Assembly (NCBI GenBank): GCA_016214745.1
Contig: JACRNW010000016.1
Location: 591-64,590, forward strand
DNA from: Candidatus Falkowbacteria bacterium
Lineage (GTDB): Bacteria > Patescibacteriota > Patescibacteriia > XYB2-FULL-38-15
Reading direction: 5' to 3'
Length of the DNA: 64,000 nucleotides
Shown piece after piece: positions 1 to 49,268 of this stretch. The notes beneath the pieces are model-generated. The model had not been told where the DNA came from and did no database searches. It saw only the letters and a list, made by a program, of their open reading frames with translations. The translations under genes were made by a program, and so were the position numbers. How positions within the stretch are numbered: position 1 is the stretch's first letter; each line of letters begins with the position of its first letter.

Positions 1-210
1 CAAGAGAGTTCTCAAAAAATCCAAAGCTCCGGCATGAGTTTGTTAACGGAAAAAATCCTAAAAGAATTTCCCGGCGGGGAGATCAAAAAAGTTAAACCAA
101 AACAAGATGGCAGTTATGATATTGATTTGATGTATAACGGAGTAAGTTATAAAATAAAAACAGATTCTACTGGAAATATCGTAAAGAAGGAAATTAAGAG
201 GGAAGATTAA
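1..210 (+). CDS. 3' end of a PepSY-like domain protein (partial, runs off the window start)
   Basis: Frame-1 ORF with stop at 208-210. C-terminus ...GEIKKVKPKQDGSYDIDLMYNGVSYKIKTDSTGNIVKKEIKRED resembles the PepSY motif (YEVEv..dGkeyevyVDA.TGkIlk). Confidence 0.35.
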   Translation, partial: QESSQKIQSSGMSLLTEKILKEFPGGEIKKVKPKQDGSYDIDLMYNGVSYKIKTDSTGNIVKKEIKRED

Positions 211-229
211 AAATCGGCTCAGCCACAAA

Positions 230-282
230 GCGGGCGGGCAAAAATGAAGGGGGTTGGGGGGAAGGAATTTTTGCCCGCCCGC
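230..282. repeat. Perfect 15-bp inverted repeat (GCGGGCGGGCAAAAA ... TTTTTGCCCGCCCGC) with a 23-nt G-rich loop at the left edge of GC-rich island 1
   Basis: Read directly from the sequence. No T-run follows, so it is not a classical intrinsic terminator. Confidence 0.6.
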
Positions 283-594
283 CGAAGCGAAACCCCGCCG
301 CCCTGCTCGTTTGGAGCAGAACCCAGCAAAAAAGTTTTCTTTTCCTTTTAGAAGAAAAAGTCGGGCGCGCGCAAATCAAAAAATGCGAACAAAACTTTTC
401 TGCGGTGTGGCGAGCGTTAGCGAGCGGCGGCGGGGCGGAGCGTCAGTTTCGCTCAAAAAAGGTTCGCGCAAAGTGTATAATTACAGCATTTGTAAACTAT
501 AAGATTTTAAAAAACAGAAACCTAAAATTTCTGTTTTTTTGTTTGCTTTTTAATCTTATTTATTTTAAGATATGGCCAGAAAGGGAGGATAAAA

Positions 595-822
595 ATGACG
601 GAAACCTACCTGACCTTTGGAAAACTCCGAGGAGGTGATAGGTTCATTGTACTTCCTCACAAGGGCTTCTGCTTCCGCTTGCACGGCGACTACGTGAAGG
701 CGAGCTACCTCTTCATGAAACTTGAAGGGCGGCTCGGGCGACGGCGCGCCAACGCCATCCGCCTCCGCAACGGCAGGACCTGCGTGATCCCGAACTTCGC
801 GCCCGTTATCCGGATCAGATAG
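595..822 (+). CDS. Hypothetical small protein (75 aa) in the GC-rich island
   Basis: ORF preceded by a strong RBS, GAAAGGGAGGATAAAAATG. High GC. No recognisable family. Confidence 0.35.
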   Translation: MTETYLTFGKLRGGDRFIVLPHKGFCFRLHGDYVKASYLFMKLEGRLGRRRANAIRLRNGRTCVIPNFAPVIRIR

Positions 823-853
823 CGGCCAAGGCCGCGAAGAAAGGAAGGAAGAG

Positions 854-1750
854 ATGGGAGAACGGAACTTTCGTGAAATGCTCGAGGCCAAGTGGGCCGA
901 AGGCAAGTTCGTCTGCGTCGGACTCGACACCGAACTCGGGAAGATTCCTGAGTGCGCACGCGTGAGCGGCGGCAGCTGGGAGCAGATCGTCCACTACAAC
1001 ATGGTGATCGTCCACGTGACCCGAGACCTCGTGTGCGCCTACAAGCCCAACTTCGCCTTCTACTTGAGGCACGGCGAAGAGGGGCTGCGCGCGCTCCACC
1101 AGACCATCGGCCAGATCCACAGCGTCGCGCCCGACGTTCCGGTGATTCTGGACGCCAAGGTTGGGGACATCGGCAACACGAACGTCGGATACGTGCAGAT
1201 GGCCTTCGACAGTTTCCGCGGGGAAGCGGACGCCATCACGGTCCATCCGTACCTCGGCGCCGAAGCGCTCGCGCCGTTCCTCGAGCTCGCCAACAAGGGC
1301 GTCGTCGTTCTCTGCCGCACCTCGAATCAGGGTGCGGGCGAATTCCAGGACCTGCCGATTTCGCTGGCCGAGCAACGCCGTGCTCTCGAGAAGCACCTCG
1401 GCCGCGAGATTCCCGAAGGGTCCATCCCACTCTACCAGTACGTGGCCTACCGCGTGGCCGCCCACTGGAACAAGCGCGGCAACTGCGCGGTAGTCGTCGG
1501 CGCGACCTACCCCGAAGAACTCGGGAAGGTCCGAGAGATGGTCCGCGACCTGCCGATCTTGATCCCGGGCATCGGCGCGCAGGGCGGCGACGTCGAGAAG
1601 ACGGTCCGGGCTGGCAAGGACAGCCGCAGCCGGGGAATGATTGTGAATTCCTCGCGCGGCATCATCTTCGCTTCGCCTCTTTCGGACTGGCCGGAAGCGG
1701 CTCGCCGCGAGGCGCAGAAGCTCCACGACGCGATCAACCAGAACCGGTAG
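854..1750 (+). CDS. pyrF: Orotidine-5'-phosphate decarboxylase, type 2 (long form)
   Basis: Motifs VGLD, KPNFAFY, DAKVGDIGNT and 298 aa length match type-2 OMP decarboxylase. RBS GAAAGGAAGGAAGAGATG. ~65% GC. Confidence 0.9.
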   Translation: MGERNFREMLEAKWAEGKFVCVGLDTELGKIPECARVSGGSWEQIVHYNMVIVHVTRDLVCAYKPNFAFYLRHGEEGLRALHQTIGQIHSVAPDVPVILDAKVGDIGNTNVGYVQMAFDSFRGEADAITVHPYLGAEALAPFLELANKGVVVLCRTSNQGAGEFQDLPISLAEQRRALEKHLGREIPEGSIPLYQYVAYRVAAHWNKRGNCAVVVGATYPEELGKVREMVRDLPILIPGIGAQGGDVEKTVRAGKDSRSRGMIVNSSRGIIFASPLSDWPEAARREAQKLHDAINQNR

Positions 1751-1763
1751 AAGGAGGAAAACC

Positions 1764-2387
1764 ATGAACGGACAAGAAGCCCTGGAAATCTTCAAGCGGA
1801 CCGGCGCGCTGCTCGATGGCCATTTCGTCTTGGCCTCTGGCCGACACAGCAGCCAGTACATGAACAAGGACGCCGCCTACTCTTTCCCCGACCAGATCTC
1901 ACTCCTCTGTTGGGGCATTGCTCTGGCTTTCGTCGATCGGCAGATCGACGTGGTCGCCGGACCGGAGAAGGGCGGCATCATCCTCTCGCAGTGGGTCGCT
2001 CACCACCTGATCGAGTCGGCCGGCCAGAAGATGCGGGCGGTCTATGCCGAGAAGGACGGTGATGGTTTCGTCTTCCGGCGCGGCTACGACAAGCTCGTGG
2101 CCGGCAAGCGCGTTCTTCTCGTGGAGGACGTGATCACGACCGGCGGCTCCATCAAGAAGGTCATCCAGGCGGTGCGGACGCTGAACGGCAACCCGATCGG
2201 CCTTGGCGCGCTCTGCAACCGTGGAGGAGTGGATGCCGAAGCACTCGGTATCCATGATTTCCACGCACTGGCCAACCCCACTTTCCTGACTTGGGGTGCC
2301 GACGACTGCCCGCTCTGCAAGCAAGACGTGCCGGTGAACACGGAGGTCGGCAAGGGCCGCGAGTTCCTGGCCCGACAGGGTCGGTAG
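1764..2387 (+). CDS. pyrE: Orotate phosphoribosyltransferase
   Basis: PRTase motif VLLVEDVITTGGS and overall OPRT-like sequence. 14 nt downstream of pyrF. High GC. Confidence 0.9.
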   Translation: MNGQEALEIFKRTGALLDGHFVLASGRHSSQYMNKDAAYSFPDQISLLCWGIALAFVDRQIDVVAGPEKGGIILSQWVAHHLIESAGQKMRAVYAEKDGDGFVFRRGYDKLVAGKRVLLVEDVITTGGSIKKVIQAVRTLNGNPIGLGALCNRGGVDAEALGIHDFHALANPTFLTWGADDCPLCKQDVPVNTEVGKGREFLARQGR

Positions 2388-2422
2388 TCGCAATCGCAGT
2401 CGCTACACATCAAGGAGGGAAC

Positions 2423-2455
2423 GGCGTGGACCACAAAGACCACGCCGCTTTTTTT
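2423..2455 (+). terminator. Rho-independent terminator after pyrE
   Basis: Stem GGCGTGG / CCACGCC (7 bp) followed by a T7 run. Confidence 0.7.
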
Positions 2456-2456
2456 A

Positions 2457-2531
2457 CCCCCACACCAATTAAAGTAGTTAAAAAATAACAAAAAATATTT
2501 ATAAGTACGCTTCGATTAATTGGTGTGGGGG
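2457..2531. repeat. 14-bp perfect inverted repeat (CCCCCACACCAATT ... AATTGGTGTGGGGG) with a 47-nt AT-rich spacer at the right edge of GC island 1
   Basis: Read directly. Together with the 230-282 hairpin it brackets the pyrF-pyrE island. Confidence 0.6.
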
Positions 2532-2588
2532 TGAATTGCCAAAAAAATAAAAATAAGTTAAGATTGGGTAAGAAATAACCTGTCTTTT

Positions 2589-3611
2589 ATGGACGAAGAA
2601 CGACTCATCACACCAAAAGAACAAAATGAGGACCAAGTGTTTGATATGACACTTCGGCCCAAGGTTTTGGCTGAATATATCGGCCAGGAACAGATTAAAA
2701 AAAATCTGGAAATTTTTATTTCCGCGGCAAAGAAAAGAAAAGAACCTATTGAACATGTTTTGCTTTACGGCTGTCCGGGTCTTGGAAAAACTACCCTCGC
2801 TCACGTCATCTCAAATGAAATGGGCGCCCAAATCCGTATCACTTCCGGTCCGGCGATTGAACGCGCCGGCGACCTCGCGGCGATTCTCACAAACCTCGGC
2901 GAAGGTGATATCTTATTTATTGATGAAATCCATCGCTTAAATAAAGTAATTGAAGAAGTTTTATATCCGGCTATGGAAGAGTACGCCCTAGATTTGGTTA
3001 TTGGCAAAGGGCCCGGCGCGAGAACGGTCCGTCTGGACTTGCCGCGTTTCACGATTATCGGCGCCACGACAAAAGTCAGTATGATTTCCTCGCCGCTCCG
3101 CGATCGCTTTGGCGCGACCTATCATTTAAATTTTTATGAAGACGCGGATATCGGAAAAATTATTAACCGCAGCGCCAAAATTTTAAACATTAAAATTGAT
3201 AATGGCGCCGTGGAACTTTTAGCCAGCCGCGCCCGCAAAACTCCTCGCGTCGCAAACCGCATTTTGAAACGCGTCCGCGATTACGCCGAAGTCAAGGCAA
3301 ATGGTATAATAACAATGGAACTGGCCGAAGTTGCGCTCAAAAATTTAGGCGTTGACCAATTCGGCTTGGATCAAATTGATCGCCGGATTCTTGAATCAAT
3401 TATTAAAAAATTTCAGGGCGGTCCGGTCGGTTTGAACACGCTCTCCGCCGCGACCGGCGAAGAACAAGCCACGATTGAAGAAGTCTACGAACCATATCTC
3501 TTACAACTTGGATTTATAAACCGCACGCCGCGCGGCCGGGTCGCCACTGAAACGGCGTATAAACATCTGGGCATTGATATCCCAAAAAATTTACAAGAAA
3601 AACTTGTCTAA
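2589..3611 (+). CDS. ruvB: Holliday junction branch-migration helicase RuvB
   Basis: Walker [18 protein letters not shown], full-length RuvB-like sequence. Confidence 0.95.
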
Positions 3612-7898: not shown

Positions 7899-9209
7899 AT
7901 GGTTTGGACGATTTTGTTAATTTTATTTTTTTTCGCTTACGCCTACTTCGCTTGGCGTAATATTTTTTGGGCAACCGCGACGATTTGCGCTCTTCTGCCG
8001 GCGTATCTAATCAGGTTCTCGCTCGGCCCAATGCCCATGACCGCCCTTGAGATGATGATTCTAATTCTTTTTGCGGTTTGGTTTATAAAATTAAAATTCC
8101 GAAAAGAAAAGTTAAACAATCCAATAAAAATTTTAGAAAATAAAAAATGGACTTGGCCAATTCTTGCCTGGCTTTCCTTCGCCATAATTTCAATGCTTAT
8201 TTCGCCGGATTTACGCGCCGCCGCAGGCATCTTCAAAGCTTATTTTTTTGAACCGCTTCTTTTTCTGCTCGTTCTTTTGAGTGTGGTTAAAACAAAAAAG
8301 GATTTGGAAATATTTTTTTATGCTTTGGGTTTTTCCGCGCTCTATATTTCCGCTTTTGCCATTTACCAAAAATTCACCGGTTTCGCCATCCCAAACCCAA
8401 TCTGGCAGGCGGCAGAAACCCGCCGCGTTACGAGTTTTTACGGCTATCCAAACGCGATCGGACTTTATCTCGCGCCGATTGTCATACTTTACGCAGGACT
8501 GTTAATTTCTAATATCCAATATCTAATATCAAAAATCAAAAAAGTAACCGCCAGATATTGGCTATTGGATATTGGCTATTTGCTGTTGGTTATTGCCGCT
8601 TCAACGGCATCCATCATCTTCGCCCGTTCCGAGGGCGCTTATGTCGGAATCTTGGCCGGTTTATTTTTTCTGGGGCTTATGACAAAAAAATTGCGTTGGC
8701 CGACGGTTGCGCTCGCGCTTATTTTTGTCACAGTCATCGCGCTCGTGCCGCAATTTAGACATTACGCCGTGGAACAGATAACTTTTAAAAATGATTCCGG
8801 CAAAGTCCGTCAAATTATGTGGCGCGAAACTTGGCAAATGCTCCGCGACCGGCTTTTTTCCGGAGCGGGATCAGCCGGCTATCAGGAAACTTTTGCACCA
8901 TATCACAAAGCCAAATACATTGAAATTTATCTTTATCCCCATAATTTATTTTTAAATTTTTGGACTGAAATGGGTTTGGGCGGTTTGATTGTTTTTTTAC
9001 TTATTACTATAAAATTTTTCAAAGACACCATAAAAAAATTTCTCGCCACTCGCCAGCCGTTATTTATTACTCTCTCTGCTGTCATGATTACAATTCTTGT
9101 CCATGGTCTGGTAGATGTCCCGTATTTTAAAAATGATTTGGCAATTTTATTTTGGCTTATTATTGGCCTATCTCTTTTTGAATTAAAAAAAATACCAAAA
9201 AATATCTAA
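7899..9209 (+). CDS. O-antigen ligase/polymerase-like (Wzy_C) membrane protein
   Basis: Polytopic membrane protein with YPHNLFLNFWTEMGLGGLIVF (Wzy_C-like motif). 3 nt after the flippase gene. Confidence 0.7.
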   Translation: MVWTILLILFFFAYAYFAWRNIFWATATICALLPAYLIRFSLGPMPMTALEMMILILFAVWFIKLKFRKEKLNNPIKILENKKWTWPILAWLSFAIISMLISPDLRAAAGIFKAYFFEPLLFLLVLLSVVKTKKDLEIFFYALGFSALYISAFAIYQKFTGFAIPNPIWQAAETRRVTSFYGYPNAIGLYLAPIVILYAGLLISNIQYLISKIKKVTARYWLLDIGYLLLVIAASTASIIFARSEGAYVGILAGLFFLGLMTKKLRWPTVALALIFVTVIALVPQFRHYAVEQITFKNDSGKVRQIMWRETWQMLRDRLFSGAGSAGYQETFAPYHKAKYIEIYLYPHNLFLNFWTEMGLGGLIVFLLITIKFFKDTIKKFLATRQPLFITLSAVMITILVHGLVDVPYFKNDLAILFWLIIGLSLFELKKIPKNI

Positions 9210-9249: not shown

Positions 9250-9341
9250 TAAATATGGGGTTGACATTTCTTGAAATTTATGTAAGAATAAAGTGTTTGG
9301 TTCGTTTGCACCCCAAGAGAGGGGTGAAAGGAAGGATATAG

Positions 9342-10091
9342 ATGGAAACCAAACTGGTGGCCTTGACCATCTGTTTCGTGATCGGCGGATGCGGTCTGGA
9401 TACGGGCGGCATGGGCGAGCCGGACGACGGCGCTCTGCCCGACATCGTGGAAGAGGGCGAGCCGGACATCGGCCCGGACGAAGCCGCGACCGACGTTTCC
9501 GAAGCCGACCAAGAAGACGTGGCCGAGGATGCGGGCGAAGACGAAACGGCGGACGAGACCGAGCCCGACGAAGCATCTCCCGACGAGGCAGCCGAGGACG
9601 TCACAGACGTCCCCGACGAGACCGAGCCGGAAGACGCGGACGATGCGGCCGACGAAGCGGGCGATGAAGCAAGCGACGAAGGCGGCGAGACCGAGGACGG
9701 CGAACCCGACCCCTGCGCTCTGCCGGAAATCCCCGCCACGGGAATTTTCGTCTGGTACTGCTTCGACTACGACTTGTCCTCTCCGATGTCTCTCGAGTTC
9801 CAAGCCGAACGGGCCGGAATTCCAGTCGTGAGCTGGCGTGCTGCCCCTGGTTGCTCGACAACTCGCGGGCGGCGGCTTGAATGCACGCTCACGCCGACGG
9901 TGTGGGATGCCACCTACATCTTCAACATTCGGCTCGACCCGGGTGTTGGGATCGGGTGGTCCTGCGGGCCGGAACTTCTGGCCATCTGGGGTACGCCGCA
10001 TGTTTGGCTGGACGGAGTGGAGTTGACCGTCACATCAGTGACGAACGGCGACGGCGGCTGCAACCACAGCTTCCTGACACCCTCGCTGTAG
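9342..10091 (+). CDS. Acidic lipoprotein with a D/E-rich low-complexity region (GC-rich island 2)
   Basis: Signal peptide with lipobox (LTICFVIGGC), a long Asp/Glu-rich spacer, a C-terminal Cys-containing domain. RBS GAAAGGAAGGATATAGATG. ~68% GC. Confidence 0.6.
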   Translation: METKLVALTICFVIGGCGLDTGGMGEPDDGALPDIVEEGEPDIGPDEAATDVSEADQEDVAEDAGEDETADETEPDEASPDEAAEDVTDVPDETEPEDADDAADEAGDEASDEGGETEDGEPDPCALPEIPATGIFVWYCFDYDLSSPMSLEFQAERAGIPVVSWRAAPGCSTTRGRRLECTLTPTVWDATYIFNIRLDPGVGIGWSCGPELLAIWGTPHVWLDGVELTVTSVTNGDGGCNHSFLTPSL

Positions 10092-10118
10092 CCCAAGGAG
10101 GTCCTTCAGCGAACCACC

Positions 10119-10152
10119 GGCGGAAAGCCCCTGCTTTCCGCCGTATTTTTTT
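10119..10152 (+). terminator. Intrinsic terminator after the GC-rich lipoprotein
   Basis: GGCGGAAAGC ccct GCTTTCCGCC followed by T7. Confidence 0.8.
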
Positions 10153-17875: not shown

Positions 17876-18328
17876 ATGTTTTTAAAACACAAAAAATTGA
17901 TTTTAATTATCGTCGTGGGTCTTGGGTTAGCCGTTGCTCTGCCGACTCTCGCTTCCTGGCCGGCCACGCCGCTCCTCCCTCCCTGCACTTCAAGCGGCGA
18001 TTGTGGTTTTAATGATTTTATTTTGCTCGGCATCAATTTAACTAAAATGATTTTGGGCCTGGTCGGGTCGCTTACTCTGCTTTTCTTTATTTACGGCGGC
18101 GTAATGTTTTTGCTCGCCGGCGGAAAATCGGAAATGATTGATAAAGGGAAAAAAATTATTACGAACGCCGTGATCGGCGTAGCCATAGTGCTCGGCGCCT
18201 GGATAATCGTGAACTTTGCCATTGCGGCTTTGACCGGCACGCCGGTTAGCAATGTTAAAATTTTTGGTACGGAAGATTGGTGGAAAACTCCCGGAGAGGA
18301 AACAACTAATACCAATAGCGGAACTTAA
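17876..18328 (+). CDS. VirB2/TrbC-like (T4SS-pilin-like) small membrane protein, paralog 1
   Basis: Signal peptide, then two hydrophobic helices separated by a short polar loop (YGGVMFLLAGGKSEMIDKGKKIITNAVIGV...). Shares the core with the eight downstream paralogs. Confidence 0.6.
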   Translation: MFLKHKKLILIIVVGLGLAVALPTLASWPATPLLPPCTSSGDCGFNDFILLGINLTKMILGLVGSLTLLFFIYGGVMFLLAGGKSEMIDKGKKIITNAVIGVAIVLGAWIIVNFAIAALTGTPVSNVKIFGTEDWWKTPGEETTNTNSGT

Positions 18329-18338
18329 AAAAATAAAT

Positions 18339-18965
18339 ATGAAACTCTCTAAATTCTTATTCTTTGTCATAATATTTTTTTCCGCCTTTGCGCTTTTGAC
18401 GCCGAGTGCGCTAGCAGTGCGAACCTGCACTTCTAGCACTGGCTGCGCGCCCGGTGAAAACTGTTCTGAAATTTATGGTGGAGATCAATGCGTTAATACT
18501 TCAACTGAAACAATCTACTATATAACCGGCCGCTGCAGCGGTGGAGTCGGCTCCATCGCTTGCCCTGCTGGTTTCACCTGCCAATCAATTACCCGAGGCA
18601 GATATTGTATTACAAACGAAGCGGGAATGGCCGCAACTTCATGCCCCGAGGGACAAGAACTAGTGAACGGGAGTTGCCAAATCAAAAGTGCTGCTACCAC
18701 CAGTCCGGTTGAATTCACCTCGCCCCTCGGCATGGTTTCACCCACTCAAATTCTTGGTCGGGTTATTAAAGCTGTTCTCGGTATTCTCGGCGCCATTGCC
18801 CTTTTTATGTTTGTTTGGGGCGGCCAAGGATGGATGATGTCGGGTGGCAATCCAGAAAAAATAAAAGCCGCGCGCGCGACTCTTATTTGGGCCGTCATCG
18901 GCATGGTCGTAATATTTTTAAGTTACGCCGCGGTTGATTTTATTCTCTCAGCTTTTGGAGCTTAG
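18339..18965 (+). CDS. VirB2/TrbC-like pilin paralog 2, with an N-terminal Cys-rich extracellular module
   Basis: Start moved to MKLSKFLFF. Signal peptide. Cys-rich region (CTSSTGCAPGENC...CPAGFTCQ...CPEGQELVNGSCQ). C-terminal pilin-like core FVWGGQGWMMSGGNPEKIKAARATLIWAVIGMVVIF. Confidence 0.6.
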   Translation: MKLSKFLFFVIIFFSAFALLTPSALAVRTCTSSTGCAPGENCSEIYGGDQCVNTSTETIYYITGRCSGGVGSIACPAGFTCQSITRGRYCITNEAGMAATSCPEGQELVNGSCQIKSAATTSPVEFTSPLGMVSPTQILGRVIKAVLGILGAIALFMFVWGGQGWMMSGGNPEKIKAARATLIWAVIGMVVIFLSYAAVDFILSAFGA

Positions 18966-18968
18966 AAC

Positions 18969-19541
18969 ATGAAAAAATATTTCAAACTAAAAATACCGTC
19001 TCTTATTCTCAACCCGACGATTTTATTTTTTATTTTTTTATCGGCTGGAATTCTGCTCGGGGCAACGCCCGCCCTGGGAGAATGCAATTGCTCAACCGGC
19101 GCATTTGGTTCATCCTGGACAACCACGGATCCTTGTTTCGCTGACAGCGATTGCTCTCTGCCGTGCGAACGGACTGTTCCGGGAGGCGTAACGCCTACGA
19201 GTCTATCTTATACGTGCGCTACGACAAGCGTCCCGAGCGGCGGGACAACAACTCCTGGCGCGCCGGAAAAAATTAAATTGGAAAATCCCCTTGGCGGCGG
19301 GACTGGCGTAACCTCTGTCCCACTCCTCATCGGCAATATTATCAAAACTATTTTAATGATTGTCGGCGCCCTGGCGCTCGCCATGTTTGTTTACGGCGGC
19401 TTTACTTGGCTCACCTCCGGAGGCAGCGCCGATAAAGTTAAAAAGGGCAAAGATATTTTGATTTGGGCGACTATCGGCCTCATTGTCATTTTTACGAGCT
19501 ATACTTTGGTAGACTTCTTATTAACCGCATTAGGAATTTAA
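18969..19541 (+). CDS. VirB2/TrbC-like pilin paralog 3, with Cys-rich module
   Basis: Signal peptide, CNCSTGAFGSSWTTTDPCFADSDCSLPCE module, Thr/Pro-rich linker, core MFVYGGFTWLTSGGSADKVKKGKDILIWATIGLIVIF. Confidence 0.6.
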   Translation: MKKYFKLKIPSLILNPTILFFIFLSAGILLGATPALGECNCSTGAFGSSWTTTDPCFADSDCSLPCERTVPGGVTPTSLSYTCATTSVPSGGTTTPGAPEKIKLENPLGGGTGVTSVPLLIGNIIKTILMIVGALALAMFVYGGFTWLTSGGSADKVKKGKDILIWATIGLIVIFTSYTLVDFLLTALGI

Positions 19542-19542
19542 A

Positions 19543-20223
19543 ATGTTTATCACGCGACAAAAATTTTTTACTTTAATACCCCTCTTCTCTTTTTTATTTT
19601 TCTTTTTACCTATTTTCCCGGTTGATGCCCAGGAAGAATGCCGCTGCTATGTTTATGGCAGTTTTGACCGCGAAGAAGCAACCTGCAACAGCCGGTGCCC
19701 GAGCATTTGCGGAGCAATAAGCGACCGATCCTTGGAAAATTGGAATATTGATCTTCGTCTTTCTCCCGAATGTCGCGCCGCAGACGGCCAATGGCAATGC
19801 AACTGCTATATTTCCCAAGCTTTGCGCGGCGTTTCCACTGAAGAAGCATGCAGTGATATTTGTTACGCCCTAACCGTGCCTAACGCAGAGCTAACCGGTG
19901 AATTTAGAGATTTTGGTGTGGCGGAAGAAGCAGCCCCGAAAACTGAAGAAGAAGAATTTCCAACCTACAAAATTAAATCTCCGATCGGCGAAGTGACCGG
20001 ACCGGAACTTATTGGCCGAATTATTAAAACAGTCCTTGGCGTTGTTGGCGCCCTGGCTTTGGCCATGTTTGTTTACGGCGGCTTTACTTGGTTGACCTCG
20101 GCCGGCAGTGCTGATAAAATAAAGAAAGGCAAAGATATCTTAATTTGGGCGACTATCGGCCTTATTGTCATTTTTACCAGTTATACTTTAGTGGATTTTG
20201 TTTTACGAGCCTTTGGATTATAA
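19543..20223 (+). CDS. VirB2/TrbC-like pilin paralog 4, with a different Cys-rich module
   Basis: Signal peptide, ECRCYVYG...CNSRCPSICG...CNCY module, acidic linker. The C-terminal core is ~85% identical at DNA level to paralog 3. Confidence 0.6.
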   Translation: MFITRQKFFTLIPLFSFLFFFLPIFPVDAQEECRCYVYGSFDREEATCNSRCPSICGAISDRSLENWNIDLRLSPECRAADGQWQCNCYISQALRGVSTEEACSDICYALTVPNAELTGEFRDFGVAEEAAPKTEEEEFPTYKIKSPIGEVTGPELIGRIIKTVLGVVGALALAMFVYGGFTWLTSAGSADKIKKGKDILIWATIGLIVIFTSYTLVDFVLRAFGL

Positions 20224-20301
20224 ACAGTTACACAAATTATCTAAAAAACTTAAACAAATTAATTGTTAACTGTTAAATGTTAGCAGTTATCCCGAAAGGG
20301 G

Positions 20302-20676
20302 GTGAAGAAAATGAAAAAACTATTTATCTGTTTGACGGTGCTCGCTCTTTTGACTCCAGTTTTGGTCTCCGCGCAAACGAATGACATCTTGGGCCTGAAT
20401 GTCATTAACAATGCCAATATCGGCTTGCAAGCTTCAGATCCGAGAGCTGTTGCCGCGAAAATCATTAACGTGGCGTTGGGCTTCTTGGGCATCATCGCCG
20501 TGGTCATTGTTCTTTACGGAGGCTTTGTGTGGATGACGGCGGCTGGCAACGAGGAAAGAATTTCCAAAGCGAAACAAATCCTTACTGCCGGTATCATCGG
20601 CTTAGTCATTATCGTAATGGCTTGGGCAATCGCCTCTTATGTTGTAAGAACTTTGATGAACGTTACAAACACCTAA
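20302..20676 (+). CDS. VirB2/TrbC-like pilin paralog 5
   Basis: Signal peptide plus core LYGGFVWMTAAGNEERISKAKQILTAGIIGLVII. RBS GAAAGGGGGTGAAGAAAATG. Confidence 0.6.
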   Translation: MKKMKKLFICLTVLALLTPVLVSAQTNDILGLNVINNANIGLQASDPRAVAAKIINVALGFLGIIAVVIVLYGGFVWMTAAGNEERISKAKQILTAGIIGLVIIVMAWAIASYVVRTLMNVTNT

Positions 20677-20682
20677 TTTAAA

Positions 20683-20715
20683 AATGGGGTGGGGGTAAAT
20701 CCCCACCCCATTCTC
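20683..20715. terminator. GC hairpin (GGGGTGGGGG taaat CCCCACCCC), terminator-like
   Basis: Perfect 9-10 bp stem after paralog 5. A-run upstream and T-rich downstream. Confidence 0.5.
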
Positions 20716-20863
20716 GATTGTCTTGTATGTCCCGTTAGAAGTTCTTGACAGAAAAATTTTATCAAAAATTTTTCTTTATAAAACTAACGGCACATAAAAT
20801 TTAAACGACACCACTGTTATAAAGATACAACAATAAATTAAATCGACAAACTTCTAACGGGAT

Positions 20864-21295
20864 ATGTTTTTAAAAATAGAAAAAATAAAAATTTTTAAAT
20901 TTATCTGCGTCGCAGCGACTCTTTTACTTTTATTCGGCGCGAACCTTGCTCTTGCTCAACCCACTGACGGCGAAAAAACTGATAGCGATGCAAGTGGCGT
21001 CCGCTCTGGCCTAGAAAATACGGCTGAAGCCGCCGGAATTCCCAAAACGGGCGGCGAAGAAGCCATCCCAAATCTCATCGGCAGCATTATTATGGGCGCG
21101 CTCGGTTCTGTCGGCATCATTTTTTTAATTTTAATGATCATTGGCGGCGTAATGTGGATGACTGCTTCCGGCAATGAAGAACGAGTCAACAAAGCAAAGG
21201 GTTTGATTACTAACGCGGTGATCGGCATGATTATTGTTTTCTCCGCTTACGCCATTACTTATTTTGTGACTGAAACTTTACTTGGAACCAGATGA
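20864..21295 (+). CDS. VirB2/TrbC-like pilin paralog 6
   Basis: Core IIGGVMWMTASGNEERVNKAKGLITNAVIGMIIVFSAYAITYFV. Confidence 0.6.
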   Translation: MFLKIEKIKIFKFICVAATLLLLFGANLALAQPTDGEKTDSDASGVRSGLENTAEAAGIPKTGGEEAIPNLIGSIIMGALGSVGIIFLILMIIGGVMWMTASGNEERVNKAKGLITNAVIGMIIVFSAYAITYFVTETLLGTR

Positions 21296-21795
21296 AAAAC
21301 TTAAAAAAAATTCTAATCATTTTTTTCCCTTTAGCTGTTTTAGCCGCCGTATTTTTCTTTTTTAAAGACACCGCTTTGGCACAATCAATTTTCGGCGGGC
21401 TTGAAGGCGCGCGAAAAACAGCCGGATTTTCCGAAGATACAAATATTTATTCCAGAATTGGAATGTTAATTTCTGTTTTTCTCGGTTTTGTCGGAGTGAT
21501 TTTTTTGGGCCTTACTCTTTACGGCGGATTTATTTGGATGATTGCTCGCGGCAATGAACAGGAAATTGAAAAAGCAAAAAAATTAATTGAAGCGGCCGTA
21601 ATCGGCCTCGCCATAGTCTTCGCCGCTTATGCCATTACTTATTTTGTGACCTCGCGTTTGCTTTCCACGAGCAGCGGGAGCGGCGCGGCGACCTGCGCTG
21701 AAGGCACAACTCTTTGCACCTGCCCCGGAGCCGGCTCCGCGTGTCTTGACCCCGGCGAATCTTGCGAAGAATTATGCGGGTCGGTTACTCCTTAA
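21292..21795 (+). CDS. VirB2/TrbC-like pilin paralog 7, with a C-terminal Cys-rich tail
   Basis: Core LYGGFIWMIARGNEQEIEKAKKLIEAAVIGLAIVFAAYAITYFV plus tail ATCAEGTTLCTCPGAGSACLDPGESCEELCGSV. Overlaps paralog 6 by 4 nt. Confidence 0.6.
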   Translation: MKNLKKILIIFFPLAVLAAVFFFFKDTALAQSIFGGLEGARKTAGFSEDTNIYSRIGMLISVFLGFVGVIFLGLTLYGGFIWMIARGNEQEIEKAKKLIEAAVIGLAIVFAAYAITYFVTSRLLSTSSGSGAATCAEGTTLCTCPGAGSACLDPGESCEELCGSVTP

Positions 21796-21819
21796 TACTT
21801 TAAATTAATTAAATATTTT

Positions 21820-22245
21820 ATGGCTAAATTTAAAAAAATATTTATTGCTTGTTGCTTTGTCTTGGCACTTTTCACTCTTGCGGTGCCCCTTCTTTCTTCT
21901 GCCGTGGCTGAACCCGGAGACGCTTTAAACAGATTGAAAGAAGTTGGTGGTTCGGCCTATGGCGTCGGCGAGGAAGAACCGAGAGATGTCACGGAAATTG
22001 TCGGCGGAATAATCAAAACCGCTCTCTCGATTATGGGCATAGTTGCTGCAATTTTAATCATTTATGCCGGTTATGTTTGGATGACGGCCCGCGGCAAAGA
22101 AGAACGTGTCACCAAAGCCAAAGAAACTTTGGAGGCGGCAATTATCGGTTTAATTATTATCATGGCGGCCTACGCCTTTACCTACTTTGTAGTGGATCGT
22201 ATAATGCAAGCTTCAAGTACTCCAACTACAACACCAACACCTTAA
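21820..22245 (+). CDS. VirB2/TrbC-like pilin paralog 8
   Basis: Core IYAGYVWMTARGKEERVTKAKETLEAAIIGLIIIMAAYAFTYFV. Thr/Pro tail. Confidence 0.6.
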   Translation: MAKFKKIFIACCFVLALFTLAVPLLSSAVAEPGDALNRLKEVGGSAYGVGEEEPRDVTEIVGGIIKTALSIMGIVAAILIIYAGYVWMTARGKEERVTKAKETLEAAIIGLIIIMAAYAFTYFVVDRIMQASSTPTTTPTP

Positions 22246-22254
22246 ATTAAAAAT

Positions 22255-22638
22255 ATGAAATTTATCTCTAAAAAATTATTTATTTCCTCATTCCTGATTT
22301 TAATCCTCCTCTCCGCCCTGCCGGCCTTTGCTCAGATAGAAGGATTAGAAAACTTCGGCAAAGCAGCCGACTACGTTGCTGATACAAGTGCTACTCCCAA
22401 GGAGCCGGCAGAAATCGTCGGAGGGCTTATCAGTACCGTTCTCAGTGTTTTGGGTGTTATTGCCGTTGTTTTAATTATCTATGCCGGTTTTATTTGGATG
22501 ACTGCGGCGGGCAACACGGAAAAAATTGATAAGGCAAAAAAAATTCTCGGAAATGCCGTGATTGGATTAATTATTATTCTAATGGCATACAGCATCACTT
22601 ATTTTGTCACGAGATCTTTATTGAACGCCACAAGATAA
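22255..22638 (+). CDS. VirB2/TrbC-like pilin paralog 9
   Basis: Core IYAGFIWMTAAGNTEKIDKAKKILGNAVIGLIIILMAYSITYFV. Confidence 0.6.
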   Translation: MKFISKKLFISSFLILILLSALPAFAQIEGLENFGKAADYVADTSATPKEPAEIVGGLISTVLSVLGVIAVVLIIYAGFIWMTAAGNTEKIDKAKKILGNAVIGLIIILMAYSITYFVTRSLLNATR

Positions 22639-22692: not shown

Positions 22693-22713
22693 TTGTTGTT
22701 GTGTCCTCCCTCG

Positions 22714-23247
22714 TCACCGGCCAGCCGAGGTCGGCGAAACTGTTCCGCAGTCCAGGTTGCCGATCTCGACGCCGTGATGCCCCCGCCCGGTGGCGTCGAT
22801 CCAGAAACTCCTGACGCAATTCGCCACGTGCTGCAAGGGCGGCGGACCGATGTAGCCCTTGGCCTTGATCTCGTGCTGACCGACCGCGTCCGCGATGACC
22901 CAACAGGTTTCGCCCGGGGGCAAGAACCCACCGGTCTCCGGTAGATCGATGGCCGGTTCATCGATCCAAATCCGAAGAGAAATCTCGGTCTCGTTCGTGA
23001 CCGGCAAGCACCTCGGCCCCTCGCACCAGGGCGGCGGCCGGTGCAAAAAGCACACGTTCGACGGCGGTACCTCGTAGGCCCCGGACAGCGGATCCACCGG
23101 ATACGCCGCGTAAGCGGGGTAAGCAGCCGGCAGGCCACCTACCATGTAGGGTGCCTGAGCCGGGTAGGTCCCGTAACCGTAGCTGCCGCCCCAGAGGCCG
23201 CAACCGAGCGAAGCGACCACGAACATCATCGAGACGAACTTCGTCAT
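22714..23247 (-). CDS. Lipoprotein, hypothetical (GC-rich island 3, gene 2 of operon)
   Basis: Signal peptide with lipobox (VVASLGC). RBS GGAAGGGAGACAGCCATG. ~66% GC. Start overlaps the upstream gene's stop (ATGA). Confidence 0.6.
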   Translation of the reverse strand: MTKFVSMMFVVASLGCGLWGGSYGYGTYPAQAPYMVGGLPAAYPAYAAYPVDPLSGAYEVPPSNVCFLHRPPPWCEGPRCLPVTNETEISLRIWIDEPAIDLPETGGFLPPGETCWVIADAVGQHEIKAKGYIGPPPLQHVANCVRSFWIDATGRGHHGVEIGNLDCGTVSPTSAGR

Positions 23248-23651
23248 GGCTGTCTCCCTTCCAAGGCGTCAAGCCGCCGATCGTAATCGTCGGCGTCTTC
23301 TTCGAGATCCTCCGCCCTCTCTTCGAGTGCTGGATCCCGAGTCTGGCCGTAGCCGTACTGGCCGTAGCCGTAGTAGTTCGACGAACCACCGTAACCGTAC
23401 CCGCCGGAGTAACCTCTGTAGCAGCGTTCCGGATGGCCGCCGCGCCTTTCGCCCTGGCTTCGGAGGCAGCTGCCTTCGTCCCGGATCCGATCGGCCTGGG
23501 CCGACGTCAGGTCGGCCGCCGACATTTCCATGGGACCGGGTCCCATGAACCCGTTGGCCTCGTAGGTCATGCCGCCGCTCCGAAGACTCGTCTGAGCCGT
23601 GAAGCAGCCGGACATCGCAAACATCACGAACAACGCCGCGAAAAGCCTCAT
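23244..23651 (-). CDS. Gly/Tyr-rich lipoprotein, hypothetical (GC-rich island 3, gene 1)
   Basis: Start reassigned to MRLFAALFVMFAMSGCF (ATG at 23651) because it has the RBS AAGGGAGGTGTGGAATG. Lipobox AMSGC. GYSGGYGYGGSSNYYGYGQYGYGQ low-complexity region. Confidence 0.6.
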   Translation of the reverse strand: MRLFAALFVMFAMSGCFTAQTSLRSGGMTYEANGFMGPGPMEMSAADLTSAQADRIRDEGSCLRSQGERRGGHPERCYRGYSGGYGYGGSSNYYGYGQYGYGQTRDPALEERAEDLEEDADDYDRRLDALEGRQP

Positions 23652-23733
23652 TCCACACCTCCCTTGGGGCCCCAAGCCCCATGTTTTAAAAGAAAAGAAC
23701 CATCCGTACCCCCATTAAGGAGCAGGACATTTT

Positions 23734-30600: not shown

Positions 30601-31535
30601 GTCTTGATATCACCCAAGGTTTGCCGCGCGTTGAAGAACTTTTTGAAGCCCGTTCTCCAAAACGCAAAGCTTTCATTTCCGGCGTTTCGGGCACGGCTCA
30701 GGTGGAAGAAGATGCGAAAACAATTATTGGCCCGACCGGCGAAATCATTACTAAGGGTATTCCGGGACAAAGAAATATTAAAATTAAATATCTTGAAAAA
30801 GAAGAAACCAAATATTCGGTCAGCAAAAATAAAAAAACCACTTTCAAAAAAGGCGACAAGGTCGTAAAAGACGAACTTCTTGGTTTGGATAAAAATGGCA
30901 AAGAAATTAACGCCGCGCATGATGGTATAATTGTTTCAGCCGATGAAAATCACGTGGTAGTGGAAGCTGAAGCCGAAAAAGTTAAAGAATATATCATCCC
31001 GCCGGGCTATACTCTTTGGATAAAAGATGGCGACTTTGTAAATCGCGGCGACCAGCTGACTGAAGGCGATCTGGATTTGCATCAACTCCACAGTTTAAAG
31101 AGCAAAGAGGCGGTGCAAAAATATCTGACCAAAGAAATTCAGCACATTTATACTTCTCAGGGTCAGAAATTAAATGACAAACACATTGAAGTTATTGTCC
31201 GACAGATGTTCTCCCGTGTTTACATCAAAGAATCCGGAGACACGGAACTCTTGCCTGGTGAAATCGTGGAAAAATCACAACTTGAAGAAGCGAACAAACT
31301 CGCTAAAGAAAATAAACTTGAACCAGCCGAGGGCGAAGAACTACTCTTGGGCATCAGTAAAGTTTCTCTTTCCACAGAAAGCTTCTTGTCCGCTGCTTCT
31401 TTCCAGGAAACTGCCCGCGTCTTGATTAACGCGGCCATTACCGGCAAAGTTGACCGTCTGGAAGGCCTAAAAGAAAATGTTATCATCGGCCGCCTGATTC
31501 CGGCGGGCACGGGATTTAAAAAGAATAGAATCTAG
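27633..31535 (+). CDS. rpoC: DNA-directed RNA polymerase subunit beta'
   Basis: 1300 aa, zinc-binding CxxC..Cxx[15 protein letters not shown] active site. Confidence 0.97.
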
Positions 31536-31607
31536 AATTTAGAAAATAGAAAGTAGAATTTTGTAATCCAATTATTCTAGCTTCTAGATTCTACTTTCTA
31601 AATTCTA
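31536..31607. repeat. Long imperfect inverted repeat / hairpin between rpoC and yebC
   Basis: TAGAATTTAGAAAATAGAAAGTAGAAT ... ATTCTACTTTCTAAATTCTA. Probable rpoBC terminator. Confidence 0.5.
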
Positions 31608-31610
31608 ATT

Positions 31611-41484: not shown

Positions 41485-42387
41485 ATGAACAAATACATTA
41501 TCGGCCTGGACCTCGGCGGGACGAAAATCGCCGCCGGCGCGGTGGACACTCGCGGCAAAGTTATCAAAAAAATAACTCTTCCGACCGAAGCCCGCCGCGG
41601 CAAAAAAATAATCCTAAAAAACATTCTCGCGGCCGCGAGTAAAGTTTGGCTGCCGGGAGTAAAAGCTGTCGGCGTCGCCATGGCTGGCCAGTGCGATTTT
41701 AAAAACGGCGTTTTTGTTTCCGGGCCGAATTTTCCAAAAAATTTTAAAAATATTAAAATCGGAAAATTTTTGAAAGAAAACTTCCGCGTGCCCGTTTACC
41801 TGGATAACGACGCCCGCACCTTTACTTTGGCTGAGGCGATTTTTGGCGCTGGCCGAGGTTTTAAAAATATTATTGGCATCACTCTTGGTACGGGAATTGG
41901 CGGTGGGATTGTGATAAACGGCCAACTGATTCGCGGAAAAAATAATACGGCCGGCGAACTCGGCCATATGACGCTTGACATCTCCTCGCCATACCGCTGC
42001 AGTTGCGGTCGATTTGGCCACTTTGAAGCCCTCGCCTCAGGCACGGCGTTGGAAAATTTCTACAAAAAGTTATCCGGAAAATTTTTACCGGGCCCGGAAA
42101 TCGCCAAAAATATTTTGGCCAAAGATAAAAATGCCAAGCAGGCCGTTGCCCAACTCGGAAAATTTTTAGGCCTTGGTTTGGCCAACCTCGCCCAGCTTTT
42201 AGATCCGGATTTAATCGTAATTGGCGGCGGATTAAGCAATACTCCGGCCCTCTGGCCTGCCGCTTTACAGGAATTCAAAAAGGGAGTAATATATAAGTCG
42301 CTTAAAAACACAAAAATAGTTAGAGCCAAACTCAAAGATGACGCAGGAATTATCGGCGCGGCGTTACTGCCCGATATTAGATATTAG
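41485..42387 (+). CDS. ROK family sugar kinase (glucokinase-like)
   Basis: IIGLDLGGTKIAAG, CSCGRFGHFEA zinc motif. Confidence 0.85.
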   Translation: MNKYIIGLDLGGTKIAAGAVDTRGKVIKKITLPTEARRGKKIILKNILAAASKVWLPGVKAVGVAMAGQCDFKNGVFVSGPNFPKNFKNIKIGKFLKENFRVPVYLDNDARTFTLAEAIFGAGRGFKNIIGITLGTGIGGGIVINGQLIRGKNNTAGELGHMTLDISSPYRCSCGRFGHFEALASGTALENFYKKLSGKFLPGPEIAKNILAKDKNAKQAVAQLGKFLGLGLANLAQLLDPDLIVIGGGLSNTPALWPAALQEFKKGVIYKSLKNTKIVRAKLKDDAGIIGAALLPDIRY

Positions 42388-42444
42388 ATATTTGCTATTC
42401 GTTTTCAGCCTAATATCCAATATCTAATAGCGAATATCCTTTAT

Positions 42445-45554: not shown

Positions 45555-46071
45555 ATATGACAAACTCCAATTTCCCTCTACCCTTCGGGGGGACAGAAAA
45601 AATAAAAAACACAGCGCCTAGTTCCCTCTACCCTTTGGGGAGAGGGTTAGGGTGAGGGGGCAAGAGGAGGGACAATGAAAAGAAACAATATCCCAAAATG
45701 CCGAACGCTACGGAGAAATCAAACCGACGCCGAGCGAAAATTATGGTCAGCAATCCGCGATCGCCAACTTGGTGGAATAAAATTTAGAAGACAATTTCCC
45801 GTTGATAAATACATTCTAGATTTTTACGCGCCGGAATATCACCTCGGCGTTGAGGCCGACGGCGGGCAGCATTTTGAAAACCCGAGCCAGAAATACGATG
45901 AAACAAGAACAACGGAATTAGCCAAACACGGAGTACGGATATTAAGATTTACCAATTTAGAAATATTAAAAAACCTGCGAGGAGTTTGTGAAAAGATTCT
46001 GGAAGTTACAAAAGAGCAAACCCCCTCACCTCAATCCTCTCCCCGGCGGGGAGAGGAGGAATAATCGCCGC
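45555..46071 (+). mobile_element. ~516-bp insertion carrying a DUF559 endonuclease-like gene, flanked by a 25-bp direct repeat duplicating the 3' end of the PBP1A gene
   Basis: Direct repeats CCAAT(C)TCCGTGACGGTGTTGTAAAA at 45529-45554 and 46072-46096 (24/25 identical; the first ends the PBP1A ORF). Internal GGGAGAGGG-type palindromes at both ends. Confidence 0.6.
45675..46064 (+). CDS. DUF559 (Vsr/restriction-endonuclease-like fold) domain protein
   Basis: YILDFY...LGVEADGGQH...HGVRILRF, the DUF559 signature. The C-terminal tail is encoded by the palindromic repeat. Confidence 0.7.
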   Translation: MKRNNIPKCRTLRRNQTDAERKLWSAIRDRQLGGIKFRRQFPVDKYILDFYAPEYHLGVEADGGQHFENPSQKYDETRTTELAKHGVRILRFTNLEILKNLRGVCEKILEVTKEQTPSPQSSPRRGEEE

Positions 46072-46344: not shown

Positions 46345-46956
46345 ATGAAAGACGAGATTTACGTGAAATGCAAAAATGATAAGGCTTACTCACCAATAGG
46401 AGTGAGAAATCTCATCGCACAAGCCGAAAAAGAAAATGACGGCGATCTTCAAGCCGTTCTAGACAACAAACACAAATATAAAAATTTATGGGAGATGTGG
46501 CATGGACATTTTTTTGCTCTCGCTCTTTATAAACAGTTTGGTGAGGATTATAAATTCAATCTTTGTATACCCGAAAATGATCCTCCCGATTTATATTTTT
46601 TACAAGCCAATGGAGATGGCGCTTTCCCGGTCGAAATAATGGAATTATACAAGCCCGACGAAAATTTTAAAAACTACACTGACTTAGCAAAACATGTTTG
46701 GAATACAAATGGTCTAATGAATTATGAAACGTGTTATTTATTATTAGCTTCAAGATTAAACACAGACAAATTTAATGTTACAAAATTTATATCTGAAATG
46801 AAAAATTTTGACTGGAAATTTCAGCGAATTTATATATCTTTTTATACAGAGAAAATTTCGCAGTGGACATTCTTTGAGATTTTCCCACCAACCCCGCATA
46901 ACGACAAAAACTTCATGTCTTACAATCTTAACGATGATAAAAAATATTATTATTAA
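46345..46956 (+). CDS. Hypothetical protein (very low GC cassette)
   Basis: 203-aa ORF, no recognisable family. ~30% GC. Confidence 0.4.
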   Translation: MKDEIYVKCKNDKAYSPIGVRNLIAQAEKENDGDLQAVLDNKHKYKNLWEMWHGHFFALALYKQFGEDYKFNLCIPENDPPDLYFLQANGDGAFPVEIMELYKPDENFKNYTDLAKHVWNTNGLMNYETCYLLLASRLNTDKFNVTKFISEMKNFDWKFQRIYISFYTEKISQWTFFEIFPPTPHNDKNFMSYNLNDDKKYYY

Positions 46957-49020: not shown

Positions 49021-49268
49021 ATCAATACAATATTTTATTTTATATTTTTATATTTAATAGTAATAAGCGTTTTGATTTCTGTGGATTATTTTTCTAAAAC
49101 TTTTTTGTTTAAAGGAAATTTTGATGTTTTGGTCTGTGGAAAGTTTTTTTGATTTTGTGGACGAGTGGTGGGGAAAATTTTTCGGAAGAGTTTTTTTGAT
49201 TTTTTATTCCCACCTCGCCAAATTTTAGACACAGCTTTTTCCACAGGAGTTCGGGATAACTTTTGGTT
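49021..49268. promoter_or_regulatory. Candidate oriC: AT-rich DNA-unwinding element plus at least 4 DnaA-box-like 9-mers between dnaA and dnaN
   Basis: TGTGGATTA (49080-88), TGTGGAAAG (49134-42), TGTGGACGA (49156-64), TTTTCCACA (49237-45), each with <=2 mismatches to TTATCCACA. AT-rich tract 49021-49070. Confidence 0.5.

Follow-up and report, generated by a model that had tools for sequence, protein, structure and literature searches.

A GC-rich pyrF-pyrE operon of probable foreign origin in a variable slot upstream of ruvB in Candidatus Falkowbacteria

Introduction

How did two genes for the last steps of pyrimidine nucleotide synthesis come to lie, at a composition unlike that of the native genes around them, on a Candidatus Falkowbacteria chromosome, and are they functional? 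The question is raised by a 64,000-nt stretch of a Candidatus Falkowbacteria contig (here called the window; all coordinates count from its first letter), which carries, upstream of ruvB, a GC-rich block encoding orotidine-5'-phosphate decarboxylase (PyrF) and orotate phosphoribosyltransferase (PyrE). The window is chromosomal, with dnaA, dnaN, rpoB, rpoC, ruvB, ruvC, tig, clpP, smc, and trmD present. Bacteria of the candidate phyla radiation (CPR, or Patescibacteria) are thought to be reliant on other cells for nucleotides (PMC5220378). An earlier reading of the DNA letters (the sequence-only reading) had taken the block, hereafter island 1, for an operon acquired horizontally from a high-GC donor and bracketed by long inverted repeats. 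We conclude that island 1 is likely a functional three-gene operon of foreign origin, and that a group of related Candidatus Falkowbacteria has a variable slot at this place, just upstream of ruvB.

Results

The GC-rich block is genuine and sharply bounded. Between positions 595 and 2455, GC content is 62.6%, compared with 42.7% in the background (the window minus its five GC-rich islands) and 44.4% in the window as a whole; for equally long segments elsewhere, the mean is 43.9% (standard deviation, 3.3) and the maximum 57.1%. The content steps up exactly at the start codon of the first gene, orfS, at 595, directly downstream of a segment with 24% GC (486 to 594), and steps down past the terminator at 2455. 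The sequence-only reading was right that the block is foreign-looking but overstated its dimensions: it covers 1.86 kb at 63% GC, not 2.3 kb at 65%, and the interval from 225 to 2535 (58.7% GC overall) combines island and non-island sequence.

Codon usage and translation signals set the block apart as well. GC content at third codon positions (GC3) is 0.76 in orfS, 0.85 in pyrF, and 0.81 in pyrE versus 0.42 to 0.50 in native genes. All three island genes have a Shine-Dalgarno (SD) site with at least five of six matches to AGGAGG (GGGAGG for orfS, AGGAAGGAAG for pyrF, and AAGGAGG for pyrE), whereas a 4-mer SD core was found in only 3 of 51 native open reading frames (ORFs), leaving 48 without one, and a five-of-six match in 1 of the 51. 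The earlier claim of a strong ribosome-binding site at every island gene, lacking in the surrounding native genes, is thus largely upheld. Across the window, native genes are nearly devoid of SD sites and have AT-rich upstream regions, and strong SD sites occur in island genes and in a DUF559 gene at 45675. Antisense ORFs in the block (e.g., 815 to 1867 on the minus strand) were rejected as shadow ORFs, with GC3 below that of the sense frames and all family matches on the plus strand. Island 1 combines a compositional anomaly with a presence that varies among close relatives (see below), as expected of a tRNA-targeted integrative genomic island.

The gene content proposed from sequence alone, a small unknown ORF followed by a type-2 orotidine-5'-phosphate (OMP) decarboxylase and an orotate phosphoribosyltransferase, was confirmed by ORFs and family profiles, all on the plus strand. 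PyrF (854 to 1750; 298 amino acids) scores 216.8 bits against TIGR02127 (pyrF_sub2; cutoff, 110.6) and 90.6 bits against PF00215 (cutoff, 27; E = 1.8e-25), and it matches solved OMP decarboxylases in the Protein Data Bank (PDB). Residues K64, D100, K102, and D105, which contain the D100-x-K102-x-x-D105 motif and correspond to the catalytic residues of the family, are invariant across a 30-sequence alignment (A3). We infer that PyrF is an OMP decarboxylase. For PyrE (1764 to 2387; 207 amino acids), the top family by a wide margin is the Thermus-type TIGR01367 (pyrE_Therm), with TIGR00336 (pyrE) second at 67.1 bits. The protein also matches PF00156 (45.8 bits; cutoff, 26.3), carries the phosphoribosyl pyrophosphate (PRPP) loop of type I phosphoribosyltransferases (VLLVEDVITTGGS, residues 117 to 129), and has orotate phosphoribosyltransferases as its best solved-structure matches in the PDB. 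NCBI MBI5072040.1, a Candidatus Falkowbacteria protein (HZB93_* tags) that carries the annotation orotate phosphoribosyltransferase, is 100% identical to it; the RuvB of the window is MBI5072041.1. These matches point to an orotate phosphoribosyltransferase. The first gene, orfS (595 to 822), encodes a small conserved protein of 75 amino acids with no Pfam or NCBIfam match. An SH3-like beta fold is weakly predicted from its AlphaFold2 (AF2) model, which has a predicted local distance difference test (pLDDT) score of 73; the top PDB fold match, FeoA, is nonsignificant (E = 0.18).

The genes are separated by 31 nt (orfS to pyrF) and 13 nt (pyrF to pyrE), and the pairing of pyrF with pyrE immediately 3' of it is kept in many loci. 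Together with a promoter-like site and a terminator, these two genes encode the last two steps of uridine monophosphate (UMP) synthesis as a self-contained transcription unit, as the sequence-only reading had held. Besides pyrF and pyrE, the window contains no pyrimidine-synthesis gene (no pyrB, pyrC, pyrD, or carAB), and it is plausible that the cell uses orotate although it lacks the earlier steps.

The slot that holds island 1 is common to at least six related genomes, where it is being eroded and reshuffled. The syntenic relatives include L006 (JGI 3300028032), L170 (NCBI GCA_964649075.1), and L174 (Logan SRR29054603), with L175/L176 (an 886-kb NCBI chromosome and a Logan contig) and L177/L178 as further relatives; their backbone proteins are 76 to 96% identical to those of the window. 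The common frame runs on the left from PolX through tRNA-Leu(UAA), a hairpin, an AT-rich promoter and leader, orfS, and the GC-rich cassettes to the terminator, and on the right from ruvB (2589 to 3611, plus strand), the right neighbor of the slot, through orf76, bPH_2, SpoIID, a polysaccharide synthase, Wzy_C, and island 2 to tRNA-Ser(CGA). The tRNA-Leu(UAA) gene is directly upstream of the locus in L006, L009, L174, L175, and L177; in L170, a DUF559 insert lies between the two.

Behind the shared promoter and orfS, cassette content differs from genome to genome. The window has orfS-pyrF2-pyrE, L009 has orfS-purM-purB-purC-pyrF2-pyrE, L006 has orfS-purM'::'pyrF fusion-pyrE, L177 has orfS-purM-purC-pyrF1-pyrE-HD, and L175 has o70-orfS-o160-HD, while L170 and L174 retain orfS only. 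Homologs of orfS, 36 to 88% identical to that of the window, stand at the head of the islands of L006, L009, L170, L174, L175, and L177; identities are 39 to 84% for PyrE and 61 to 93% for PyrF, where the latter is not represented by a type-1 enzyme instead. Given this differing content behind a shared promoter and orfS, the slot behaves as a hot spot of recombination and replacement. One recombination patch spans 839 to 1814, the only interval over which the DNA of the window pyrF gene matches L001 (92% identity), with identity collapsing about 50 nt into pyrE. The deletion in L170 has a clear junction: what comes right after orfS is the tail of pyrE (its last ~25 nt), then the terminator and the right hairpin, and the joint falls in a 15-nt direct repeat. 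In the window, the two plus-strand copies of this repeat lie at 823 to 837 (CGGCCAAGGCCGCGA) and, inside the 3' end of pyrE, at 2348 to 2362 (CGGCAAGGGCCGCGA), marking the left and right ends of the deleted segment. L170 lost pyrF-pyrE through deletion between the two copies; close relatives can dispense with the operon.

The signals around the genes are conserved too. The left edge of the locus is a hairpin at 509 to 539 on the plus strand (AAAAAACAGAAA / TTTCTGTTTTTT), a 12-nt perfect inverted repeat kept in L006, L009, L170, L174, and L177; because it lies directly 3' of tRNA-Leu(UAA) in relatives, it is probably the terminator of that gene. The promoter-like site TTGCTT-17 nt-TAAGAT (543 to 571, plus strand), which is predicted to drive the operon, is AT-rich and of host type, with a composition that is not foreign. 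Its -10 box, TAAGAT, is also found in the ruvB promoter-like site TTGCCA-17-TAAGAT (2536 to 2564, plus strand), which is 95% conserved in L006 and L008 and forms the right edge of the variable slot. All syntenic relatives keep the promoter module, and a second copy is located upstream of pyrF in L009 and L001. The motif was rejected as a mark of all five islands, since it has a single copy in the window and is confined to Falkowbacteria-type loci. The leader that follows it (GGCCAGAAAGGGAGG; 572 to 594, plus strand) includes the SD site GGGAGG at 583 to 588 and a motif, TTAAGATAYGGCCAGA, likewise confined to Falkowbacteria-type loci. The leader sequence GGCCAGAAAGG resembles a PyrR loop, but the PyrR binding site (RF00515) had no match at E ≤ 5 across positions 1 to 3000. 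The Rfam scan returned only tRNA-Ser at the gathering threshold, and at E ≤ 5 the same 3,000 positions gave only chance-level matches and no riboswitch. At the other end, the operon has its own intrinsic terminator, as claimed earlier, with a stem (CGGCGTGG...CCACGCCG) followed by a T-run at 2422 to 2455 (plus strand) and kept in L006, L009, and L170. Just past the pyrE stop, and overlapping the terminator stem, an SD-like AAGGAGGGA followed by GTG (2411 to 2428) may be what remains (ribosome-binding site and start codon) of a downstream gene that has been lost; in L177 and L175, an HD-domain gene comes after the cassettes.

Island genes appear to be under selection for function while their composition changes. 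The ratio of nonsynonymous to synonymous divergence (dN/dS) is 0.16 for pyrF (versus L001) and 0.20 for pyrE (versus L006), which indicates purifying selection and hence functional genes. Along the branches leading to the window, L001, and L006, substitutions that turn GC into AT outnumber the reverse. For the window, the tally at third positions is 29 from GC to AT against 4 from AT to GC (binomial p = 1e-5), and the implied equilibrium GC3 of ~0.40 to 0.46 matches that of native genes. This asymmetry points to amelioration, with the island genes drifting toward host composition. Synonymous divergence (dS) between genomes is 0.16 to 0.45 for island 1 genes versus 0.33 to 0.88 for the backbone, with island 2 like the backbone; the low values could reflect later exchange among lineages or a bias of the method in GC-skewed genes.

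The direction of change bears on the alternative that island 1 is native and was passed down vertically, with selection, or GC-biased gene conversion in a recombination hot spot, keeping its GC high. We consider this improbable, even though it would accommodate a GC3 that stays at ~0.8 in every lineage while the backbones have diverged substantially, a locus that is clearly recombinogenic, CPR proteins as the nearest relatives, and the recurrence of GC-elevated pyrFE in many low-GC contigs. A substitution bias whose equilibrium lies near host GC3 indicates that the composition of the island is decaying rather than being maintained. Furthermore, in most CPR species representatives pyrF sits at genome GC (within ~0.04 of its flanks), SD usage in the island is foreign too, and GC steps at the limits of the cassettes, with the promoter between cassettes remaining AT-rich.

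Foreign origin leaves the identity of the donor to be considered. The named PyrF matches at 60 to 66% identity are all from CPR (Liptonbacteria, Paceibacterota, Yanofskybacteria, Moraniibacteriota, and Minisyncoccia), and the named PyrE matches are mostly from CPR/Patescibacteria. In a rough neighbor-joining tree, the window, L001, and L009 fall inside a CPR clade, with Actinobacteria and Chloroflexi in other clades. Because PyrF and PyrE group with CPR proteins, the donor is best sought not in some distant phylum of high GC but, probably, in a CPR-type genome richer in GC than the host. Some relatives are found in contigs of uniformly higher GC (L002 and L101, 58%). Horizontal acquisition from a high-GC donor, as first proposed, retains the support of foreign composition, third codon positions, and SD sites, but a distant phylum as its source does not stand: by both the tree and the nearest matches, the proteins branch with CPR homologs. 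A direct, recent transfer from, e.g., Actinobacteria or Chloroflexi would fit the high GC3 and strong SD sites typical of such phyla, in which type-2 PyrF is also common. We find it hardly probable nonetheless, given a PyrF identity to those two phyla of 41 to 51% against 60 to 66% to CPR, and the placement of both in other clades. Nor was acquisition recent or private to this genome, since the island is common to the related Falkowbacteria and diverged among them (for pyrE, the window and L006 differ by a dS of 0.45). We found nothing specific in the literature on transfer of pyrE or pyrF in CPR.

The inverted repeats that had been proposed to delimit the block exist, but they do not delimit it. 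The left one has 16-nt perfect arms (230 to 245 and 267 to 282) and precedes the GC shift by 310 nt, inside a segment (211 to 485) that no relative shares. The right one has 20-nt arms that are 95% identical, with a 17-nt perfect core (2453 to 2472 and 2516 to 2535, 43 nt apart); it forms an 80-nt hairpin insert (2453 to 2535) between the terminator and the ruvB promoter, is single copy in the window, and is present in L170, with other sequence in its place in L006 and L174. The fold of 2388 to 2590 has a z score of -5.45. Each repeat is a self-contained hairpin without sequence similarity to the other, and 37 comparable intergenic hairpin repeats occur across the window. The two are incidental, unrelated local hairpins and not the termini of an element.

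These observations make it very improbable that island 1 is a discrete mobile element (a transposon, a unit flanked by miniature inverted-repeat transposable elements [MITEs], or an integron cassette) ending at the two repeats, although long inverted repeats near the block ends are what such an element would show and promoter-first exchangeable cassettes recall an integron. The segment with the left repeat is absent from all relatives, and L006 and L174, which lack the right repeat, retain the island or a remnant of it. Neither a transposase or integrase gene nor a target duplication is present, and the gaps between the genes hold no attC-like site. A scan of viral contigs with PyrF gave no match, and BLAST against phages and plasmids gave trivial matches only. 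Finally, a chimeric assembly, in which a piece of a high-GC organism's contig was misjoined into the Falkowbacteria contig, might be suspected from the metagenomic source of the genome and the abrupt ~20-point GC change at both ends, but we regard it as excluded because each of the two junctions is found again in assemblies made independently from other samples (the left, from AT-rich promoter to GC-rich orfS, in L170 and L174; the right, comprising the pyrE 3' end, terminator, hairpin, and ruvB promoter, in L170 and, minus the hairpin, in L006), backbone sequence resumes past the block, and the same pattern is seen in four other islands of the window, of which island 2 is syntenic in all relatives.

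The segment from 211 to 485 is noncoding, highly self-complementary, and specific to the window, and it lies outside the conserved island; homology to L009 and L006 begins at 486, exactly at their tRNA end. It resembles neither the other parts of the window nor any of the loci retrieved, and it contains no tRNA gene and no Rfam match. Compared with shuffled sequences, its folding is pronounced on the minus strand (z = -5.2; plus strand, z = -1.9). It contains nested inverted repeats, and its minus strand ends in a hairpin followed by UUUGU. The segment could encode a small RNA, or it could be a scar left by the insertion of an element.

GC-rich pyrFE cassettes are not restricted to this slot. 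Many of the closest PyrE loci from metagenomes are pyrF-pyrE pairs that exceed their low-GC flanks by 0.12 to 0.27 in GC, and they carry PyrF of either type. A co-oriented tRNA gene within 900 nt upstream was found at 9 of 21 loci with a GC contrast of at least 0.07 versus 1 of 85 loci with lower contrast (Fisher p = 8e-7) and, with near-duplicates removed, at 8 of 18 (p = 1.5e-6), in a comparison whose two groups come partly from different collections and whose statistics carry no phylogenetic control. The adjoining tRNAs are those for Arg, Lys, Ala, Leu, and Ile.

Several other features surround the slot in relatives. Homing-endonuclease-like DUF559/HNH genes are found on either side of it, including one relative's DUF559 insert between the ruvB promoter and ruvB. 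The DUF559 (Vsr-like endonuclease) genes are bordered by short CCCTC...GAGGG hairpins and are located at 45575 to 46065 in the window, 1974 to 2381 in L006, 9469 to 9858 and 10666 to 11073 in L170, and 3052 to 3459 in L174. A repeated short intergenic element, 82 to 94% identical among its copies (L009 1622 to 1885, L001 257 to 525, and L006 10275 to 10344), occurs between island cassettes and after island 2 and holds a terminator-like hairpin and a copy of the promoter module. In L175, a 21-nt, 95% copy of a tRNA-Leu 3' end (3059 to 3079) lies ~90 nt beyond tRNA-Leu(UAG) (3170 to 3255) and near a Tad4-domain gene (2262 to 2567); this copy looks like the att-type scar of an integration at a neighboring locus.

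Elsewhere in the window are four further sharply bounded GC-rich islands (9300 to 10150, 22700 to 23700, 53990 to 54440, and 61780 to 62700), each with 60 to 68% GC, GC3 of 0.67 to 0.85, and one or two ORFs that belong to no Pfam or NCBIfam family. Lipoprotein-like N termini are seen in three of these ORFs (9342 to 10091 and, on the minus strand, 22714 to 23247 and 23244 to 23675). Island 2 has its own TTGACA...TAAGAA promoter-like site, SD site, and terminator and adjoins tRNA-Ser(CGA) in all relatives, with protein identities of 58 to 80%. Immediately before island 3, at 18252 to 22638, eight paralogs stand in tandem, each with a T4SS_pilin domain (PF18895) at its C terminus, and rpoB comes after the island. 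Directly upstream of island 5 (61430 to 61660) is a cluster of CCCTC...GAGGG hairpins with a DUF559 leader (GGGAGAGTTAGAGAGGGATTT) and no DUF559 ORF left. A second pyrimidine-metabolism locus, an ORF of native GC at 46808 to 47779, gives a strong match (229.7 bits) to PF05822, the UMPH-1 family of pyrimidine 5'-nucleotidases, whose members are mostly eukaryotic. Long AT-rich intergenic inverted repeats, at 8504 to 8580, 31526 to 31608, 42372 to 42438, 51649 to 51758, and 59740 to 59844, are built of reiterated short words such as TAGAATTTAGAAA, GATATTAGATATT, and ACAAATTACAAAT. With dnaN and dnaA on the minus strand at 47872 to 50633 and a cumulative GC skew minimum near 45 to 46 kb, the replication origin is probably in this part of the window.

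Discussion

The history that best fits these observations can be set out as follows. The coding cassettes would derive from a higher-GC genome with PyrF and PyrE of CPR/Patescibacteria type and would have entered a slot which, in relatives, lies 3' of tRNA-Leu(UAA) and holds combinations of purM, purB, purC, pyrF (type 1 or 2), pyrE, and an HD hydrolase gene. After arrival, they have drifted toward the AT-rich composition of the host and been lost by deletion in some relatives, with exchange among genomes presumably by homologous recombination. In the window, transcription would start from the AT-rich host-type promoter TTGCTT-17-TAAGAT and stop at the intrinsic terminator, each of the three GC-rich genes being translated from its own SD site. 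PyrE would then convert orotate and PRPP to OMP, and PyrF would decarboxylate OMP to UMP, with orotate as the likely physiological substrate.

Several observations weigh against this account. The neighbor-joining tree has no support values, and metagenome-assembled genomes labeled as non-CPR (Chthoniobacterales, Legionella, and Gammaproteobacteria) fall inside its CPR PyrF clade. Outside the island family, no candidate donor exceeded an identity of 66% for PyrF or 58% for PyrE. PyrE scores 142.7 bits against TIGR01367, narrowly below the equivalog cutoff of 150.25. GC3 is still ~0.8 even though backbone dS between genomes is ~0.3 to 0.9, which requires a very GC-rich ancestor, later exchange between lineages, or slowed decay. 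Where relatives carry tRNA-Leu(UAA), the window has the segment from 211 to 485, so its flank is without that tRNA. No att-like repeat (at least 14 nt of the tRNA 3' end) was found downstream of the island in any locus, and no integrase or transposase was found among the island or flank genes of the window or of the relatives' loci.

A more far-reaching idea, to which we give tentative credence at best, is that the interval between tRNA-Leu(UAA) and ruvB serves as a dedicated landing pad without an integrase. A conserved promoter and orfS would be followed there by GC-rich pur and pyr cassettes drawn from a shared CPR pool and repeatedly swapped, recombined, and deleted; breaks made by DUF559/HNH enzymes might stimulate the exchange. 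The recurrence of GC-rich pyrFE cassettes at other tRNA genes, in many CPR genomes of low GC, would then represent one general route by which the nucleotide auxotrophy of reduced episymbionts is tuned.

Leaving that idea aside, a foreign operon in a variable slot offers a concrete case of changing nucleotide dependence in CPR bacteria. A module leading from orotate to UMP, accompanied by purine genes in relatives, would have arrived as a cassette from a foreign genome, come under a host-type promoter, been reshuffled between related genomes, and been lost, the last by simple repeat-mediated deletion. It is also a clean natural example of amelioration in progress, and the tendency of GC-rich pyrFE cassettes to have a tRNA gene upstream in low-GC CPR-type genomes is a statistical association that can be tested further. 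The value of the locus lies in CPR metabolism and genome dynamics, not in a new type of system.

Among known systems, island 1 can be compared with tRNA-associated genomic islands, which, together with amelioration, are a concept of Lawrence and Ochman. It shares with them compositional contrast, foreign codon usage and translation signals, accessory metabolic cargo, a tRNA neighbor in all relatives, variable content, and directional decay from GC to AT. Unlike them, it has no integrase, att direct repeats, or mobility genes, is only 1.9 kb long, and uses a conserved host-type promoter, and in the window its tRNA flank has been replaced. As in integron platforms, one upstream promoter is followed by exchangeable, individually translated cassettes that vary among close relatives. 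However, no integron integrase gene, attI, or attC was seen in the 64-kb window (neither the Pfam survey of the window nor the locus itself contains an integrase, and the intergenic gaps have no attC-like structure), and the positions of the breakpoints, inside genes and at short direct repeats, suggest that recombination was homologous or illegitimate. Transposons and MITEs are a poorer comparison still, as the two repeats are single copy in the window and not inverted copies of each other, with no transposase. At the level of the genes, PyrF and PyrE resemble TIGR02127 and TIGR01367 in sequence family, length, and catalytic or binding motifs, although PyrE differs from the latter in its score just under the cutoff and in a C-terminal tail that contains CPLCK. 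The pyrF-pyrE pairs of other CPR genomes (L002, L004, L010, and L114) have the same enzymes, order, and tight spacing (PyrF, 60 to 66% identity; PyrE, 48 to 58%), but in most CPR species representatives pyrF is at genome GC, whereas the pair of the window stands 20 GC points higher, is preceded by orfS, and belongs to a larger pur/pyr island family. The mechanism class, a horizontally acquired island, is therefore well known; the dynamics of the locus and the association with tRNA genes are modestly new.

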